A DNA stretch of 11,808 bases from a virus (Monodnaviria; Loebvirae; Hofneiviricota; Faserviricetes; Tubulavirales; Inoviridae): the IMG/VR virus record IMGVR_UViG_2563366858_000001, one strand, 5' to 3'. Position 1 is the first letter of the stretch. Each line of letters starts with the position of its first letter. Made by a program: the position numbers and the translations under genes. Under the pieces are notes generated by a model. It worked only from the letters and a program-made list of their open reading frames with translations, was not told the origin of the DNA and searched no databases. Below, piece after piece: positions 558 through 8,311 of the stretch.

Positions 558-697
558 AATGGTAAGGATGGCAGAATCTGGCGGGAATCGTTGACACTGG
601 CCGTCAACTGGCTACTATCGACAGTGATTCAAAATCATCCGTTTCTCCAAACGAATCAGAATCAAATGTCTGTCAGCAGTAAGTGAACGGCCTGACC

Positions 698-946
698 TCA
701 CCAATCAGGCCTGTTCATCCAGTTAGTTGGTAAATCTGTACCTGATACACGAGAATCAAACACCACTTCTTCAGTGCCATCACCATGATGCCGGATAATC
801 TGGTAACCGGATTGCGGGTTCTGGCTCTCAGCTTCATAAGCAGCCCGGAATGCTGGATCTTTGAGAAGCATCACTTTCAGCTCCTGATGTGTCATGAATT
901 TTTCCATGATAAGCCCCGATGAATGCTGCCGCGCCGAATCAGCCAT
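698..946 (-). CDS. Hypothetical small protein (about 65-82 aa depending on start; possible starts at 946, 907 or 895)
   Basis: Six-frame ORF inside the prophage between attL and the secretin gene. No strong Shine-Dalgarno before any candidate ATG. A 7-bp inverted repeat (689-695 / 705-711) straddles its stop codon. Function unknown. Confidence 0.3.
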   Translation of the reverse strand: MADSARQHSSGLIMEKFMTHQELKVMLLKDPAFRAAYEAESQNPQSGYQIIRHHGDGTEEVVFDSRVSGTDLPTNWMNRPDW

Positions 947-1091
947 AACGCTGAAAATGGAAACTGTACGGCTTGGCCAACCCCGGACAGCAACAAAACA
1001 AGTTTTGTCACTGACCGGCGTTATCTTTCAAAACAGACAGTTAACGATTTTTTGTCTGGTGTTTATGCGTGAAATTTCGTGCGTACGAAAT

Positions 1092-1340
1092 TCACCACCA
1101 ATAAACAAACGGACGATGACTGACCGGAAAAGCAATGCCGTCAGCATCATGACCACGCATTACCTGATTGAGAAGCCTTCTGACTTCACGACGCTCAGGC
1201 CTGGTCATCATCATATTGCGATACCAGGACGGCGATTTATCAAACCATCTGGCACAACTGGCAAAATGTGAACCTACACGACGATAAGACTTAAGGCGTC
1301 CACCGGGAAGTCGGTCACGCGCCTTATTTTTTACAGACAT
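1092..1340 (-). CDS. Hypothetical small basic (Arg-rich) protein, 82 aa
   Basis: ATG at 1338-1340 is preceded on the minus strand by GAGGA with a spacing of about 6 nt (a strong RBS). The protein is rich in Arg/Lys, compatible with nucleic-acid binding. It lies immediately downstream of the secretin gene. Confidence 0.4.
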   Translation of the reverse strand: MSVKNKARDRLPGGRLKSYRRVGSHFASCARWFDKSPSWYRNMMMTRPERREVRRLLNQVMRGHDADGIAFPVSHRPFVYWW

Positions 1341-1428
1341 AATAAATCCTCTAAGTAACTGAATACCTAGAAGATGTCGTACTGTTCATACCCCATAAAA
1401 GTTAACGCCATAATAAAAATCCATACAA

Positions 1429-2673
1429 TCAGTTCAGGTTGTCCCGGAACAGTTCACCGCTCCTCGCGGCGCTGCGGGGCGTCGCCCTGCTCCGGTCAAC
1501 CTTTCTGACCTGAAGCATCACCATAATATCAGTCTTGTTGCTTTCACTGGTACGGGAACCGAAGAAGCTCCAGCCGGAACTGGCCTTACTGTCTTTCTGT
1601 TCAGCAAGGCCACCAAGTAAAATAATATCACCATCTGCAAGGCTGACTTCGGTTGTTACATCACGCTTGATAAGGGTTGGCGAGTTATTGACGCCGGTTT
1701 CAGTGGTCACAAAGTTGGAAAGCTGCTGCTGAATCTTGAGATCCATTGTCCGACTTTTGATTGATGGCGTCACGTTAAACAAAACACCGCTGGAACGATA
1801 TTCAACGGATTGCGTTGTCGTATTGTTATTCACCGTAACACTGCCCAGTACTGGCACATCAGAGCCGACTGAAAAAGACGCTGAGGCATTATTTTTTACC
1901 CGCAGTCGTGGCGCACTGACAACAGTAAAACGACTGTCGGTTTTCAGCAGATTGAAAATGGCATCAATGGAGCCGGTTCGAATATTGATAAAATTATCCA
2001 GTCCGGCAGCACCAACTGAAATATTGAATTTATCAGACAGAATTTTAGCCGCTAAAAGAATGCCGGAGCCGTCAGACTGCGAGGTCTGAACCTCAAAAAC
2101 ATAACCAGAAACAACCACTTCATCACTCATCGTATCCAGCGAAGTGACCAGTGTTTTCAGGATGGCGATATCCTCTTTCGTACCATAATAAACCAGAATA
2201 TCACCGGTTCGATTGATGTAGTTGCTTGCCCCTGATGAACCTTTTAGCGAATCGTCAGAAATCACGGCTCCACTGTTATTGAAGGAGCCTGAAACGTAGC
2301 CGCCAAGAATATCAGACAGGTAAGCAACAGAACGGTACTGAGGCGTATAAGTCCATGTATAACGTGGCTTAACCGGCTCTTTCGGCGTATAGGGCGCGAT
2401 AAAATCAACACCCTTTTTCGTCCATATTCGAATGTTCATATTGCCAAGATAACGGGTTACAAATTCCCGTTCATCAATATCAGGTGTTAACCTGAATGTA
2501 ATCATTCGTTCATCATTAACAAGCTGTGGATCTAGCATATACGGGACTTTAAGCACCTCACTGTAAATAAGAGAAATAGCCTCCGGTAGCTTGACTTTAT
2601 TTAATTCAAGCTCTGACCCTGCGAAAGCACATGAAGAAAATAGTAGCGTTAATGCGAGTAAAATCTTTTTCAT
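1429..2673 (-). CDS. Filamentous phage pIV-like outer-membrane secretin (virion export channel), 414 aa
   Basis: N-terminal signal peptide (MKKILLALTLLFSSCAFA) and a C-terminal secretin-type domain rich in Gly/Ser/Thr/Val beta-strand repeats (e.g. VVSAPRLRVKNNASASFSVGSDVPV, ILLGGL). The length is typical of phage pIV rather than T2SS GspD. Its ATG overlaps the stop of the upstream Zot-like gene (TAATG at 2671-2675), with a GGGGA RBS. Confidence 0.85.
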   Translation of the reverse strand: MKKILLALTLLFSSCAFAGSELELNKVKLPEAISLIYSEVLKVPYMLDPQLVNDERMITFRLTPDIDEREFVTRYLGNMNIRIWTKKGVDFIAPYTPKEPVKPRYTWTYTPQYRSVAYLSDILGGYVSGSFNNSGAVISDDSLKGSSGASNYINRTGDILVYYGTKEDIAILKTLVTSLDTMSDEVVVSGYVFEVQTSQSDGSGILLAAKILSDKFNISVGAAGLDNFINIRTGSIDAIFNLLKTDSRFTVVSAPRLRVKNNASASFSVGSDVPVLGSVTVNNNTTTQSVEYRSSGVLFNVTPSIKSRTMDLKIQQQLSNFVTTETGVNNSPTLIKRDVTTEVSLADGDIILLGGLAEQKDSKASSGWSFFGSRTSESNKTDIMVMLQVRKVDRSRATPRSAARSGELFRDNLN

Positions 2674-3698
2674 TATTTTTTCCCCGTATAAAGCGTCACA
2701 CGCTCACCATCAATAATTCCGCTCATCAACATCCCTTTGTAATTAAAACTGGATGCAGGAACGGCACGCAAAACACCGGCACCGTTAACAAGAATCACAA
2801 ACGCCCTGCCTTCACTGGTCATTCTCCCTGATATACGCCACTCGGTTGAAAGTGGCGGTTCAGCTGGTTCTGAGGGAGTATCTGGTGCTGGAGTAGCAGC
2901 GGAAGAACGAAACATGGCCGCATCACGTACATCTGTTGTAGTCAAATCTGGCGAGGGATCGCTTCGGCCAAACGTGCTGAAAAATGAGTAAATCAGCCAG
3001 CCTGACCCGATAAACATCAATGGAAAAAGCACAAGAAAGAACCTGACTTTGCCAGAATTCCAGATGCTCTGGCGTTTATCTGTCTGCTTTTCATTACCGT
3101 TATTTCCTTCATAACTTTTGTAAAGTTCAAAAATATCAGGGTTATATTTATTGCGATAACTGGTGACGAGGTTGCTTTTATAGATTTTGTGGCCTGAATA
3201 TACGTCAATGCAATAATGATTATTCAGGCCCAACGCTTTCAGCTTGCGCATCCGGTAAGTTGTTTCTATTTTGTCTTTCAGAAAGCGAGCAATATTAGAA
3301 AGTGACTGATTTACAATAACCAAATCACAGCTAATACCCGTTTCAGGGTGCGTAAAATGACGATGTTCAGCAATAAATGATTTCTTCTCAGCCGTCATAT
3401 CCTTATCGCTACCGAAGATTCGCCATGCTTCATCAATAACAATTAAATCACCAAACTGGCAAAAGCTCCCTTCCCCACCTTTAAAAGGAAAGAAATCTGC
3501 TTTAAGCACATCATCATTATCCACAACAATAATTTCTCCCGTTGCATCAGGATAACGTTCGGTGATTTTATCTTTTTGTAAACCATAAATGTTCGTCACA
3601 ACTCTCCGGCCGCTGGTAAATGCCGGAATAATGACATTGTAAACGGCTTCATAACTTTTTCCTGAGCCGGGTATGCCAATATATGCAGAAATAGCCAT
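2673..3698 (-). CDS. Zot-like / pI assembly ATPase (filamentous phage morphogenesis protein), 341 aa
   Basis: Walker A motif GIPGSGKS near the N-terminus, Walker B-like LIVIDEAW, and a hydrophobic membrane-spanning segment (FFLVLFPLMFIGSGWLIYSFF) followed by a periplasmic C-terminal region. This is the architecture of pI/Zot. Confidence 0.85.
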   Translation of the reverse strand: MAISAYIGIPGSGKSYEAVYNVIIPAFTSGRRVVTNIYGLQKDKITERYPDATGEIIVVDNDDVLKADFFPFKGGEGSFCQFGDLIVIDEAWRIFGSDKDMTAEKKSFIAEHRHFTHPETGISCDLVIVNQSLSNIARFLKDKIETTYRMRKLKALGLNNHYCIDVYSGHKIYKSNLVTSYRNKYNPDIFELYKSYEGNNGNEKQTDKRQSIWNSGKVRFFLVLFPLMFIGSGWLIYSFFSTFGRSDPSPDLTTTDVRDAAMFRSSAATPAPDTPSEPAEPPLSTEWRISGRMTSEGRAFVILVNGAGVLRAVPASSFNYKGMLMSGIIDGERVTLYTGKK

Positions 3699-3701
3699 AA
3701 C

Positions 3702-3989
3702 TCACCCTATAACAGGAATACGTCGAATAATAAAACGAGTAGCCATTGCGGAGATAATCATACTAATCCCCTGTGGTAATTTACTCAGGTTAATGAAGTA
3801 CCAGAATCCGTCTGATAAATTGGCAAACAGCGATGAGAGATTGCTTGAATCTGGCAGTAACTCAACAAGGATTTCAACGAAGCCCTGGACTACAAAATAC
3901 AGCGCAAAGAATACGACGAATTTAATAATCAATGACCGGAATACAAAACCTAACAAAGTATTTAATGCACTAATCAGAATCCCAAACAT
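3702..3989 (-). CDS. pVI-like minor coat protein (hydrophobic, 95 aa)
   Basis: Small, very hydrophobic protein in the Ff gVI position (between the pIII and pI genes). AAGGAG RBS about 8 nt upstream of the ATG at 3987-3989. Confidence 0.55.
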   Translation of the reverse strand: MFGILISALNTLLGFVFRSLIIKFVVFFALYFVVQGFVEILVELLPDSSNLSSLFANLSDGFWYFINLSKLPQGISMIISAMATRFIIRRIPVIG

Positions 3990-4001
3990 AGTTGCACTCC
4001 T

Positions 4002-5714
4002 TTAGGCACTCAGAATAATACGGAGCGCAACAAATCCCCATATAATCAGAAATATGGTTTCTACGGCGCTTCTGTTCTGCTCAATTAACGGACAATGGGA
4101 GTCAATTCTGTACTGGTGATTAAACACGCTGAATTCAACAACGGGGCAGGATGCTGAACGAGAGCCGATGTTAAATTCGTTTGTAAAAGGCAACAAGTTA
4201 ATAATTGGCGTTAAAATATCTCTTGCCGTTGGCGTTTCTTCAAGCTCAGGCTCTTTTACACCGGGATCTTCTCCCAAATCTATATTGCCATTATTTCCAG
4301 TGTCAGATCCTGAGTTGTTATTAATGGTAATATCAATATTGACGTCAGCCCCTGCACTGTCAGATACAGGTGAAAGCATATCTAATAACGTTGGAGATAG
4401 CCTAAGTTCCGACATCGCAGAAGTTACTTCAGCCGGTGAAACCTCTTTAAACGGTAAGCCGTTATAATCGGCATTAACGGCAGCTTCAGACCACAGCTCG
4501 TTAATCATGTCGGCAAGAAGTGCTGGCGATACACTAACACTATCAAGATACTCCAGATAATCAATCATGGACTCAATATTTCCGGCCTCCAGTACTTCCG
4601 TCATGGCTTTATATTTGGTATTGGTCCAGATAGTAAGCTCACTCTTTTCATCAATATCTTTTGCGGTGTAATCCTCTTTTTCAGGAACGGCGCAAATCGT
4701 CGAATATCCACCATTTGACTGATTAGTCGTTTTACAAGGCGTGTTGTGATACTGATATTGCTTTCCTGCTGTTAAATAAGCAACGCTGTAATACATGGGA
4801 AGCCCTGCTACATTTTCATACATGGGAATACCTGCGGGAAATGAAGATGCGGCCGGGTTGCTATACAAGTGTGTAATCTCAGGTATTTCATAAAATGAGG
4901 AAGGATAAGTAAACTTATAATTCTGTTCAGTAAAGGATACATCTCCATTACTGTTGACAACTTTATTCGTCACAGTGCGTTCAAAATTCGTTAGTGTTTC
5001 AGTATAAGTACGCGAGTTATAGTCATTAAGATAATTTCTGGCAATTTCAGTTGGATTATCACCATAGTAATAAATTAGCTCTTTCGAATCCTGATAATAA
5101 TAAAGTGCATTATCTGGCGTGGAATATCCTGTTTCAACACCTACAACTGGAGAACCCGCATCCACATTATTACGACTAACATGAAGGATTACCGGACTTA
5201 ATTCCTGTGGTTCAAAATTAACGGTTATCGTCTTACTTTCACCACTTTGACCACTGTACGTTACTTCATATAAATTATCGGAAATCTTTTTACCGTTAGT
5301 CATTACCATTACCGAGCCGTCAGATGAACTCAAAGAAGACGGAACAAAAGATGATACAGCAGCAGCAATACCCGCCCACGTTGCAACACCGCTCATTTTG
5401 TATGATGAGGCAGCAGGCAAGTATTCGGCAGCATTAGCCGCAGCGCGGCCAACAAAAACACGGGTTGCTGTAAGCTGTGATGCCGTATAAATCGCATCAT
5501 TGGCAGCAAAGCGACGAACAAGCACCCGGCCAACGACTTTAGGAATAACAGCCCGCGCAGCCACTGCTGCAATTGCTGGTACAAATGAATATGAATATCG
5601 GGGAAAGGAAACCCAGAGAAAGGAAAAAATAAAGGAATAAACCGTCAGCCTCTTAGCCCAAGAATAACGACATAAGCTGAGACGATCCCCCATAAAAGGG
5701 AACCCAATTTCCAT
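4002..5714 (-). CDS. pIII-like minor coat / adsorption protein (570 aa as called; true start may be internal)
   Basis: Large protein in the gIII position with Gly/Ser/Asn-rich linker regions (e.g. NNNSGSDTGNNGNIDLGEDPG), Cys pairs, and a C-terminal hydrophobic anchor (TIFLIIWGFVALRIILSA). GGAGA RBS 8 nt upstream of the ATG at 5712-5714. An alternative signal-peptide-like start exists at M107 (ATG 5394-5396). Confidence 0.6.
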   Translation of the reverse strand: MEIGFPFMGDRLSLCRYSWAKRLTVYSFIFSFLWVSFPRYSYSFVPAIAAVAARAVIPKVVGRVLVRRFAANDAIYTASQLTATRVFVGRAAANAAEYLPAASSYKMSGVATWAGIAAAVSSFVPSSLSSSDGSVMVMTNGKKISDNLYEVTYSGQSGESKTITVNFEPQELSPVILHVSRNNVDAGSPVVGVETGYSTPDNALYYYQDSKELIYYYGDNPTEIARNYLNDYNSRTYTETLTNFERTVTNKVVNSNGDVSFTEQNYKFTYPSSFYEIPEITHLYSNPAASSFPAGIPMYENVAGLPMYYSVAYLTAGKQYQYHNTPCKTTNQSNGGYSTICAVPEKEDYTAKDIDEKSELTIWTNTKYKAMTEVLEAGNIESMIDYLEYLDSVSVSPALLADMINELWSEAAVNADYNGLPFKEVSPAEVTSAMSELRLSPTLLDMLSPVSDSAGADVNIDITINNNSGSDTGNNGNIDLGEDPGVKEPELEETPTARDILTPIINLLPFTNEFNIGSRSASCPVVEFSVFNHQYRIDSHCPLIEQNRSAVETIFLIIWGFVALRIILSA

Positions 5715-5746
5715 AATTCAATCTCCATAATAACCTCAAGTAAAAC

Positions 5747-5765
5747 GGGCGATATTGCATCGCCC
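5747..5765 (-). terminator. Putative rho-independent terminator after the major coat gene
   Basis: Perfect 7-bp stem GGGCGAT / ATCGCCC with a 5-nt loop, located 14 nt downstream (minus strand) of the pVIII stop and followed on the minus strand by GTTTTA. Ff phages have a strong terminator after gVIII. Confidence 0.45.
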
Positions 5766-5778
5766 ATGAATAATGAAT

Positions 5779-6012
5779 TTATGCGGATTTAACGGTACGC
5801 AATACCCAGCGAACGCCAGCGACACCGGCATAAAGTGTTACCAGTGAAGCAGCAACGGCCATAATCGCAACCAGAACTGTACTGAAATCAATGCTGTTCG
5901 TCAGCGGCGATAAATCAACACCACTTGATGCCGCTCCTTCTGCAGCGAAAGTCGCGCCAGAAACAGCCATTAATGCAGGTACAGCCAGAAAATTAACGTT
6001 TTTTTTAAACAT
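5779..6012 (-). CDS. pVIII-like major coat protein precursor, 77 aa
   Basis: Classic architecture: signal peptide (MFKKNVNFLAVPALMAVSGATFA), short acidic mature N-terminus (AEGAASSGVD), hydrophobic core (VLVAIMAVAASLVTLYAGVAGV), and a basic C-terminus (RWVLRTVKSA). GGAGA RBS 8 nt upstream. Confidence 0.8.
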   Translation of the reverse strand: MFKKNVNFLAVPALMAVSGATFAAEGAASSGVDLSPLTNSIDFSTVLVAIMAVAASLVTLYAGVAGVRWVLRTVKSA

Positions 6013-6046
6013 AACTCTATCTCCATTACATTTTAAAGGTTCGCAT

Positions 6047-6298
6047 TCAAGCAGTACGAACCATCTTTATTACCTGTCCCACACCTACAGAAAAAAGCCA
6101 GAGCAGCAGGACAGAGCCAAAACCTAATGTCCAGTAATTTCCCATTGCAGAATAATCAATTTGATGAAATGGTTCAGAACGTACCATTATTGCCTGACAT
6201 TCTTTTGCATTGTTCGCATTACATAAATAACCTTCAATACGGTAACCATTTTCAGGAATATGATTATCAAACTGAATATCGAAACCTGATGTATCCAT
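6047..6298 (-). CDS. Hypothetical small protein with C-terminal TM helix (possible minor coat protein in the gVII/gIX position), 83 aa
   Basis: Start is 2 nt after the stop of the upstream ssb-like gene (translational coupling). Hydrophobic C-terminus (LGFGSVLLLWLFSVGVGQVI). Position corresponds to Ff gVII/gIX but the protein is larger. Confidence 0.4.
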   Translation of the reverse strand: MDTSGFDIQFDNHIPENGYRIEGYLCNANNAKECQAIMVRSEPFHQIDYSAMGNYWTLGFGSVLLLWLFSVGVGQVIKMVRTA

Positions 6299-6300
6299 AA

Positions 6301-6618
6301 TCAGCCTTTTATTTCAGTAATGCCGCCATCTGATGAAATGTTATAAGTTACTCCTTCCCTCCCCTCCATTGACCAGACGCGAACATATACAGGTATCTGG
6401 ACTAACTTACCGATAAAATTATTTGCCTGATTCATTACACCGGCATTAACAAGAGCCTGAGATACACGAATAATAATCTGGTCTTGCTTAGTGCCGCCAA
6501 AACCATCAGGAATCTCTAAGCCAACACCAATTTCATTATAGTATCCCTGACCATTGACCTTATTACGCTGGCGAGCACCAAGCATTTTACCTTTTACAAA
6601 AAGACCATAATTAGACAT
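6301..6618 (-). CDS. Putative ssDNA-binding protein (pV-like), 105 aa
   Basis: Small protein immediately downstream of rep, in the Ff gV position. Strong AAGGAG RBS 7 nt upstream of the ATG at 6616-6618. Assignment is by position and size, not by recognised motifs. Confidence 0.5.
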   Translation of the reverse strand: MSNYGLFVKGKMLGARQRNKVNGQGYYNEIGVGLEIPDGFGGTKQDQIIIRVSQALVNAGVMNQANNFIGKLVQIPVYVRVWSMEGREGVTYNISSDGGITEIKG

Positions 6619-6629
6619 ATCACTCTCCT

Positions 6630-7682
6630 TTAATGCCAGTTACTGGCATGTGAAATACGGTTATAATCGAAAATTAAACCTTTCTCATAAACCCATGATG
6701 GAATTTTGGCTGGTTTGGCTTCAAGAGTACGAACCAACGGAACAACGTTATTAGAATCCGGTGACTCACAATAAAAGTTAATATCTATTCCGAAAGAAAG
6801 TAATTCTTTACGGTGTCGGTAGAATGTAGGTTTCGGTAACATCTCTTTCATGTTCGCGCCCTGCTTCCACAATAAATATGTAGACTGTATTTTTCTTGGG
6901 AGATTAATTATTTTTTCATCAGTTAATATAGTATTTTGATTCATTTCTATTCTCCCTACATAGTCAGAGAATAATTTATTGGGCGTCTCAATATTCCAGC
7001 TATTACCAAGCGTAAGATTCAAATCAATTAATTCAGTTGTTCTTAATGTTAATTCAATGCGTAATTTATCTTTTGACCAGTCCAGTAAACCAGCTTTAAC
7101 GAATTCGTCTGCCATCTGGTGCCCTTTTTTGCCAGATGTATGCTCATCATATTTTGAATAAAATTTCAGGCTCCAACGACGGGAGTTTTTCCCTAAGTAA
7201 ACAGTGCCACCTTTACCACAGGCGCGACCGTGGCGAGTTTTAGCTTTAAATTCTGCGGCATATAACCATGCGCGGACATTTTCTAATGTTGACAATGAAT
7301 ACATGTAATTGATATCGATGCGCGAGATCTTAAATTGCCCTTCCATGACCTGCCGATAGGATGGTAGATCATGAGGAATATGCAGTAATGCCAATATTCT
7401 GGCGTAAGCTGTTAACACCAACCCTTGCAAATCGTCGGAACCGATAACAGAGTGACCTTGCAAAAACTTTGATGGATTACCGTCAATGTAGAGATGTGTT
7501 GCCCGACCTTCACCATCAGATCCAACAGACCTTACTTTCATTGTGGACTCATGCGAACCGCGAACGGTCAACCGTTTTACTGTTTCCCACTCCACTGCAC
7601 CGTCAGCATCGACGCTGACGACACTACCAGCCGGTAACGGTCGGTGTGTGCAAGGCAGGATTCCGGTAAACCAGTCGATCAT
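6630..7682 (-). CDS. Rolling-circle replication initiation protein (pII / RstA-like), 350 aa
   Basis: First gene of the minus-strand operon, divergent from an HTH repressor. Size and position match the filamentous phage replication initiator. Contains His-rich (LHIPHD) and Tyr-containing (KFYSKYDEH) segments that could be HUH-type motifs. No search was run. Confidence 0.7.
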   Translation of the reverse strand: MIDWFTGILPCTHRPLPAGSVVSVDADGAVEWETVKRLTVRGSHESTMKVRSVGSDGEGRATHLYIDGNPSKFLQGHSVIGSDDLQGLVLTAYARILALLHIPHDLPSYRQVMEGQFKISRIDINYMYSLSTLENVRAWLYAAEFKAKTRHGRACGKGGTVYLGKNSRRWSLKFYSKYDEHTSGKKGHQMADEFVKAGLLDWSKDKLRIELTLRTTELIDLNLTLGNSWNIETPNKLFSDYVGRIEMNQNTILTDEKIINLPRKIQSTYLLWKQGANMKEMLPKPTFYRHRKELLSFGIDINFYCESPDSNNVVPLVRTLEAKPAKIPSWVYEKGLIFDYNRISHASNWH

Positions 7683-7853
7683 AAGTAGTCACACCCATCA
7701 AAATATGTGTCAATAGTCATTTGTGAGCAGATTGAATGGTCACAATGTAATATGCTCAGATCTGACAGTCAATACATTTGCAATGTTTAAATTGTCAAAA
7801 ATGAGCATCAAATCTAACTATTGAAAAACCACTGTTAAGATGGAGCCAAGTAG
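7683..7853. promoter_or_regulatory. Divergent promoter/operator region between rep and the repressor gene
   Basis: A 171-bp AT-rich intergenic region between divergent genes. Contains repeated GTCAATA / TGTCAA motifs (7709-7715, 7768-7774, 7793-7798) and an inverted pair TGAGCA (7723-7728) / TGCTCA (7753-7758). GGAG RBS at 7842-7845 for the repressor. Confidence 0.5.
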
Positions 7854-8300
7854 ATGGGCAACAATGAGCATGAAGTTATGGCGGACAAACAGAGAGCAGA
7901 ACGTATCAAAAAGGTAATTCTGGAACACTCGACTTATGAAGAACTGGCCGAGAAGACTGGCATTAGCGTGAGTACGCTGGTCAGGATAGCGTCCGGCAAA
8001 ACTGAACCTAAATTCAGTGACATCATTCAGATAGCTAAAATTACGGGTGCAGACTTAAACACCTTAGCTTATGGCTATGCTCTTGATGTTAAAGAAGAAG
8101 CTACCGAGCGGAAGCTAATCACTTCTGCGGATGGATATACTGATGAAGAAACCACTAACGCACATAATTTCATCGTGTGGAACATCAGGACACTGGAAAA
8201 ACAAGATATTCTGGCACTCGCAAGGCAGGTTTCTGCCTTAAGTTCATACACTTACAGTACTAAAATGTTTATGAAAAAAGCGGTGTCTGGAGAAGAGTAA
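7854..8300 (+). CDS. XRE-family helix-turn-helix transcriptional regulator (phage repressor, RstR-like position), 148 aa
   Basis: HTH segment STYEELAEKTGISVSTLVRIASGKTEP is typical of Cro/C1-type regulators. Divergently transcribed from rep, as in CTX-type and other inoviruses. RBS GGAG 8 nt upstream. Confidence 0.8.
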   Translation: MGNNEHEVMADKQRAERIKKVILEHSTYEELAEKTGISVSTLVRIASGKTEPKFSDIIQIAKITGADLNTLAYGYALDVKEEATERKLITSADGYTDEETTNAHNFIVWNIRTLEKQDILALARQVSALSSYTYSTKMFMKKAVSGEE

Positions 8301-8311
8301 AAGGATTAACA

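Follow-up and report, generated by a model that had tools for sequence, protein, structure and literature searches.

A predicted immunity switch of the CTXphi RstR/ig-2 kind, with three regularly spaced dyads, in a CUS-1/YpfPhi-type filamentous prophage

The sites recognized by RstR, the repressor of the filamentous phage CTXphi, are long and non-palindromic, and the operators of lambdoid phages follow one another at about 20-24 bp. RstR has three binding sites in the CTXphi intergenic region ig-2 and is reported to bind and repress its own promoter (PMC4762005). In the Shewanella filamentous phage SW1, the repressor FpsR binds the promoter of the replication operon and not its own, and the 5' UTRs are long and overlap in a gap of 621 bp (PMC4762005). 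For YpfPhi, the gap between the two directions of transcription is believed to take part in transcription initiation, and the RstR-like protein YPO2273 is the presumed repressor, its regulatory role being still without experimental demonstration according to a review (PMC4266046). The same review indicates that resident YpfPhi gives partial protection against superinfection and that CUS-1/YpfPhi prophages have a modest effect on fitness in the host (PMC4266046). A search of the searchable literature returned no description of an operator sequence, a promoter assignment or a specificity residue for CUS-1/YpfPhi.

The stretch of DNA analyzed here (11,808 nucleotides, hereafter the window) is a CUS-1/YpfPhi-type filamentous prophage (inovirus) at dif, beside hipBA. 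The dif site is where such prophages are found in extra-intestinal pathogenic E. coli as well as in pandemic Y. pestis. The minus strand encodes, from 7682 to 1429, a gene II-type Rep, a G5P-like single-strand-binding protein, coat proteins, a Zot-family protein and a secretin. The rep gene, annotated in UTI89 as a II/X-family replication protein, heads this leftward operon and is divergent from an HTH_3 gene on the plus strand, with which it shares a 171-bp gap (7683-7853). Gene coordinates and Pfam domains (Table 1) thus bear out the original prediction that a control region lies here between divergent rep and repressor genes. In UTI89 and other E. coli, the chromosome carries the rep-to-repressor stretch at 99.7-100% identity; matches were present in 137 of 5,426 complete genomes, 97 of which reached at least 80% query coverage. 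YpfPhi, the prophage of Y. pestis, encodes a repressor with 100% identity to that of the window. A blastn search of the region against our phage collection, which is without CUS-1/YpfPhi DNA, gave no match, and no Rfam family was matched in the window. We consider it likely that the gap is the immunity/lysogeny switch of this inovirus, with the dyads described below as putative operators; that it carries operators of the adjacent XRE-type repressor is very probable. This assignment builds on observed motif statistics, conservation pattern, covariation and cassette behavior.

By layout and logic, this is a switch of the CTXphi RstR/ig-2 kind, with binding to the dyads predicted from the sequence. 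CTXphi and the prophage both have divergent repressor and rep genes around a compact shared gap (138 bp in CTXphi, 171 bp here), three sites (RstR sites in ig-2, predicted dyads here), a TTGACA/T-run leader element before the rep start, and heteroimmune variants in which repressor and gap are swapped together and the replication gene is kept. In contrast, the repressor itself is remote from RstR, with an hhalign probability of 77% (E = 2e-5) and 25% identity over 61 residues of the helix-turn-helix (HTH), so that the RstR-like repressor of the original prediction is RstR-like only distantly and only in its HTH. A tblastn search with the repressor at 1e-3 found Vibrio cyclitrophicus inoviruses and no CTXphi match, though CTXphi is in the collection. 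Furthermore, the repressor has 148 amino acids, as opposed to 112 for RstR, and an extra C-terminal helical region; Rep is of the pII type (PF05144) and not of the RstA type; the gap has no LexA box; and the predicted operators are short 4-N4-4 / 7-4-7 dyads.

The lambdoid OR regions (lambda, 434, P22) resemble this locus in their Cro/C1-type HTH, in having three dyads between back-to-back promoters (predicted here), and in drawing specificity from the first residues of the recognition helix, helix swaps being predicted to change immunity. They differ in that the sites here are 39 bp apart center to center instead of adjacent and the gap is without a Cro partner gene. Moreover, a Pfam search of the repressor returned no S24 peptidase domain, and self-cleavage mediated by RecA is accordingly not anticipated. 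The best LexA-box match in the gap (7762-7777) has two mismatches and is not conserved in relatives, and matches of this quality occur window-wide as expected by chance (49 found versus 42 expected). With neither a peptidase domain nor a credible LexA box, induction probably differs from that of lambda and CTXphi. The repressor shares with FpsR of SW1 a protease-less HTH protein encoded divergently from the phage operon (PMC4762005), whereas the gap here is compact and has one dyad on its repressor-proximal side. The feature is real, non-random and ordinary in kind, a switch of the expected type and no surprise.

Table 1. Features of the rep-repressor gap and of the two genes that border it, in window coordinates; sites and promoters are predictions
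Feature	Position	Strand	Remarks
rep, gene II-type rolling-circle initiator	6630..7682	minus	PF05144 E=1e-73, PF05155 E=4e-34
Conserved rep-leader element	7695..7716	minus	CTATTGACA + CAT + ATTTTGATGG on the rep strand; includes GTCAATA copy 1
O_L, rep-proximal dyad	7713..7730	plus	ATAGTCA-tttg-TGAGCAG; core 7716-7727, exact GTCA-N4-TGAG
P_rep -10	7744..7749	minus	TACATT; promoter scan 9/12
O_M, central dyad	7752..7769	minus	plus strand ATGCTCA-gatc-TGACAGT; core 7755-7766, exact match
P_rep -35	7767..7772	minus	TTGACT; reverse complement of AGTCAA, overlapping GTCAATA copy 2
Candidate repressor promoter A	7786..7814	plus	TTTAAA, 17-nt spacer = O_R, CAAATC; inferred; weak -10
O_R, repressor-proximal dyad	7791..7808	plus	ATTGTCA-aaaa-TGAGCAT; core 7794-7805; TGTCAA copy 3 = weak half
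Candidate repressor promoter B	7833..7841	plus	extended -10 TGtTAAGAT, then GGAG (7842-7845); 12 nt before ATG
XRE/Cro-C1-type HTH repressor candidate	7854..8300	plus	148 aa, YPO2273 homologue; PF01381 (HTH_3) E=1.6e-9
Possible fourth, weak site	7856..7871	plus	GGGCA-acaa-TGAGCAT; over repressor codons 1-6, start codon included

The repeated unit of the gap is the dyad (T)GTCA-N4-TGAGCA(T). Its core, GTCA-N4-TGAG, is present three times in the 11.8-kb window, each time within the gap, where 0.31 copies are expected window-wide and none of 200 shuffles reached three; the start-to-start steps are exactly 39 and 39 bp. Because the pattern was picked after viewing the sequence, these statistics are not decisive alone, and the comparative data that follow are independent of that choice. 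Extending the motif to TGTCA-N4-TGAGCAT gives perfect matches at 7752-7767 (minus) and 7793-7808 (plus) and matches with two mismatches at 7715-7730 and at 7856-7871, the latter being a 79% direct repeat of O_R whose conservation is inseparable from coding constraint. The window-type dyads are asymmetric, each with one strong and one weak half, and O_M and O_R face each other, which produces a 27-nt imperfect inverted repeat centered on 7780. Since 39 bp corresponds to 3.7 helical turns, neighboring sites lie on different faces of the helix, and simple cooperative contacts between them are not favored.

The strings on which the original prediction was built are all present, namely, GTCAATA at 7709-7715 and 7768-7774, TGTCAA at 7708-7713 and 7793-7798, TTGTCA at 7792-7797, TGAGCA at 7724-7729, and TGCTCA at 7753-7758. 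However, the three GTCAATA/TGTCAA copies presented there as one repeated motif are three different things: the first is a piece of the rep-leader element, within TGTCAATAG, which reads CTATTGACA on the rep strand; the second overlaps the -35 of P_rep; and the third is the weak half of O_R. Neither word is enriched by itself (four GTCAATA in the window versus 2.1 expected, and eight TGAGCA versus 6.7), and two TGAGCA copies in this region, at 7802-7807 and 7865-7870, had been overlooked. The spacing, described as irregular, is regular once the dyads are taken as the unit. Separately, 7721-7745 contains an inverted repeat, TTGTGAGCA / TGGTCACAA, with 9-nt arms 7 nt apart, which overlaps the predicted start site of rep as well as the right half of O_L. 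A CRP-like sequence, TGTGA...TCACA at 7722-7744, was rejected as a CRP site by inspection, the spacing being 13 versus 6.

A promoter scan gave the leftward layout TTGACT-17-TACATT upstream of rep. At the equivalent place, all 16 scored loci, which take in other repressor types and phages from Vibrio, Photobacterium and Aeromonas, have a TTGAC-like -35, a spacer of 16-17 nt and a TAnnnT -10, matching 9-10 of 12 positions. As a promoter of this layout recurs in all 16 loci whatever the repressor type, TTGACT-17-TACATT is very probably P_rep, a predicted conserved sigma-70 promoter of rep with a start near 7737. O_M occupies its 17-nt spacer and is specific to window-type cassettes, the P_rep spacer of other cassette types being without a dyad; in L007, O_M is a perfect 14-bp palindrome, GGTCAGATCTGACC. 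Relative to the predicted rep start, O_L spans about +8 to +25, and in all relatives this position holds a dyad of the type that matches the local recognition helix. The P_rep spacer also carries a GATC (Dam) site at 7759-7762, which is found in the equivalent spacer of L005-, L042- and DA33137-type cassettes and is lost in L024 and L027.

The comparison with related inoviruses that had been proposed as a check was made with 11 distinct close relatives, whose divergence reaches about 20% and which align across the gap without indels. Among the 171 columns of the gap, 62 vary; only one of these is among the 24 half-site columns, the other 61 being spread over the remaining 147 (Fisher p = 1.7e-4). 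The half-sites also differ from their own N4 spacers, in which 6 of 12 columns vary (p = 0.003). For O_R, both half-sites and the CAT extension are invariant among the close relatives and the spacer varies; O_L likewise has invariant half-sites around a variable spacer. The Y. pestis copy of the gap differs from the window at just two positions, both in spacers.

In the AlphaFold2 model of the repressor, three helices have pLDDT of 80-87 (residues 12-25, 28-35 and 39-46, the last being the predicted recognition helix); a helical hairpin follows at the C-terminus (98-145), where confidence is low. The residue at position 2 of the recognition helix, serine or arginine, covaries with the half-site. 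Repressors with x-S-T accompany TGAG and those with x-R-T accompany TGTC or TGGC, with no exception in 25 loci, many of which are close relatives, so that they represent about six independent S-type and four R-type lineages. Repressors with the helix G-I-S-V/I-S-T always come with two or three ..CA-N4-TGAG dyads and none of the other kinds. The helix I-x-V/S-R-T is found with GACA-N4-TGTC in L005, L008, L029, L043 and the isolated Vibrio phage L047, and with GCCA-N4-TGGC in L042; loci with arginine at helix position 2 have no TGAG dyads. The more distant regulator of E. coli DA33137, 40% identical to that of the window, is accompanied by three xACA-N4-TGTx dyads. Perfect 18-bp palindromes, ATGCTCA-N4-TGAGCAT, are present in L030, L038 and L041, and this palindrome stands at the O_R position in distant relatives with the same helix. 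The 4-N4-4 geometry is kept throughout, with one dyad beside the leader element and one 68-81 bp away beside the repressor gene. Scans of genomes and metagenomes added few lineages, only L064 and L074 being useful. If the dyads are operators, they offer a sequence-based way of sorting enterobacterial and vibrio inoviruses into immunity groups.

Paralogues of the repressor are also carried by plasmids. The HTH-coding part of the gene (7893-8027) has, with 93% DNA identity, a counterpart on plasmids of about 41-45 kb in E. coli and Salmonella; this gene (L004 / L046, plasmid pEC27-5, 36370-36738) lies beside a resolvase gene, at the protein level the identity is 55-69%, and the pEC27-5 copy carries trfA and korB. 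On the plasmid of about 45 kb whose paralogue has an identical HTH, five dyad-like sites are scattered at chance level and form no cluster, so an identical helix is not always accompanied by nearby sites, and the plasmid paralogues lend the operator reading no independent support.

Repressor and gap also move together. In E. coli DA33137, rep is 97% identical to that of the window, the similarity ends exactly at the start codon of rep, and gap and regulator have been exchanged as one. L005-type cassettes combine a 75% identical repressor with different dyads. Conversely, L038, which has a PF05144 Rep, and L039, which has a PF02486 Rep with RstB, carry a near-identical cassette with the same dyads, and this pairing with different Rep families points to an exchange of modules at the rep start. 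Together, these patterns indicate that the dyads travel with the repressor and not with Rep. Half-site conservation, helix/half-site covariation and cassette swapping thus agree with the proposal that operators of the lysogeny switch lie here, with the correction that the putative operator is (G/C)TCA-N4-TGAG(CAT) and not GTCAATA.

From these comparisons, we infer how binding, start sites, repression and cooperativity may be arranged. Repressor dimers would bind the three 18-bp dyads, each composed of a weak half (xxxGTCA), N4 and a strong half (TGAGCAT), with centers 39 bp apart; specificity would be set by V39-S40-T41, the first turn of the recognition helix, together with half-site positions 3-4. 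P_rep would drive rep and, by extension, the downstream phage genes leftward, and because O_M fills the P_rep spacer, a dimer bound there would keep RNA polymerase out. O_L follows closely on the predicted rep start and could serve as a roadblock or as a cooperative partner. O_R, at or beside the repressor's own promoter, could mediate autoregulation of either sign. Now that an operator can be proposed as ATG[C/G]TCA-N4-TGAGCAT, a promoter assigned and S40 predicted to set specificity, the role of the repressor becomes directly testable.

The sign of any autoregulation would depend on the promoter of the repressor gene, for which there are two candidates. Candidate A mirrors P_rep about 7779-7780 and occupies the same position as TTGATA-17-GAAAAT in L030 (9/12); having O_R as its spacer, it would imply negative autoregulation. 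Candidate B is nearly invariant in close relatives, and TA..AT is found 9-14 nt before the start codon in all loci except those of the L003 type; this stretch is a candidate -10 or a candidate part of the ribosome-binding region. As a promoter, it would yield a near-leaderless mRNA and place O_R near -48, and the conserved GGAG that follows it directly argues for an mRNA start further upstream. The suggestion that TTGTCA (7792-7797) could act as the -35 of the repressor promoter fared less well: paired with a -10 located 18 nt downstream it matches 8 of 12 positions, and that -10 is lost in L007, L027 and L028.

The rep-leader element forms a second conserved feature of the gap, and only one of its eight TGTCAATA columns varies among the close relatives. 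On the rep strand, CTATTGACA is followed by a T-run and then by a G-rich stretch; counted from the predicted P_rep start, the element falls at about +21 to +29. TGTCAA[T/G][A/G]G or close variants adjoin the rep-proximal dyad in every cassette type examined, whatever the dyad sequence; in L077 the element is at 1384-1404. In CTXphi, TTGACAGGTTTTTGAAGGCTA stands directly before the rstA ATG and is identical at 17 of 17 positions to that of the Photobacterium phage L040, and divergence between heteroimmune CTX variants begins just upstream of this leader TTGACA. CTATTGACA with its T-run is therefore common to all cassette types, to two Rep families and to CTXphi. The rep-proximal TTGACA was also considered as a second rep promoter and rejected, most loci having no usable -10 at 16-18 nt and the start site in the window falling inside rep. 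We regard as unlikely the proposal that CTATTGACA/T-run is a distinct inovirus rep control element acting on rep translation or early elongation and that, separately, O_R-bound repressor activates its own near-leaderless transcript from candidate B. If true, activation of this extended -10 from O_R would represent a lambda-PRM-like, positively autoregulatory switch in a filamentous phage.

Other explanations of the dyads were weighed against repressor binding. In Ff phages, the origin is just upstream of gene II and the f1 nick region includes AATAGT. The position of the dyads upstream of rep and the AATAGT within copy 1 would accordingly fit Rep (pII) binding sites, iterons or a plus-strand origin, and the original prediction had allowed for replication control elements in the gap. 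This reading is very doubtful and already largely refuted, as DA33137 combines a 97% identical rep with an unrelated gap, L039 has the same dyads and leader element next to a Rep_trans-family Rep, and AATAGT is on the non-viral strand; furthermore, CTXphi has its ori(+) in Ig-1, past rstR as seen from this gap (PMC8265649, PMC4439123). Another reading, that short AT-rich words of the intergenic sequence recur by chance, would agree with GTCAATA and TGAGCA each occurring at chance frequency and with the composite having been defined after seeing the data. It is nevertheless scarcely credible, since conservation and covariation in sequences outside the motif definition contradict it.

The facing arrangement of O_M and O_R raises another alternative, in which the large imperfect palindrome (arms 7752-7778 and 7782-7808) would be selected as a single-stranded DNA hairpin, for example, a promoter-like minus-strand origin, and not as a pair of protein sites. 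Its 27-nt arms are 74% complementary, and in L027 the central and right dyads with their spacers (CTTC, GAAG) make up a perfect 16-bp inverted repeat, the region equivalent to window 7745-7815 (2392-2462) folding at -18.8 kcal/mol (z = -6.1). In the window, however, the predicted folding is weak (z about -1.8, -9.2 to -9.5 kcal/mol), and 6-10 of 200 shuffles fold equally well; the hairpin is gone in L007 (z = -1.2) though the half-sites are kept, changes between relatives are not compensatory outside L027, and O_L and the recognition-helix covariation are left unexplained. We thus consider the hairpin improbable. Rather remote as well is the possibility that the dyads are sites of a host regulator, such as RovA/SlyA or, as in CTXphi, LexA, instead of the phage repressor. 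RovA binding to the YPO2274 promoter region in Y. pestis is reported in a review (PMC4266046, citing Cathelyn 2006), and RovA may well bind here in addition to the phage repressor. Against a host factor, the dyad sequence tracks the helix of the phage repressor within the same host group, which would not be expected, and for LexA the best match in the gap is of chance quality.

The surroundings of the switch show further features of the prophage. A perfect E. coli dif is present at 530-557, and hipA/hipB are on the right. Two dif-like sequences in opposite orientation (10032-10059 and 10087-10122) flank a GC-rich hairpin/terminator (10060-10095) at the right end; this pair is probably a prophage junction or attP remnants, which would place the prophage at about 558-10100. 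Two accessory ORFs lie 3' of the repressor, at 8397-8819 (a 140-aa predicted membrane protein) and 8921-10024 (367 aa); their products gave no Pfam match, and both ORFs are kept in UTI89 and in the hybrid phage L002. The latter, from E. coli SCPM-O-B-12142, occupies the same dif/hipA site and has rep and repressor genes about 90% identical to those of the window, with structural genes (attachment protein, DUF5455) unrelated to the window's. It fits the UPphi group, which has genes II and V in common with YpfPhi (PMC7307601).
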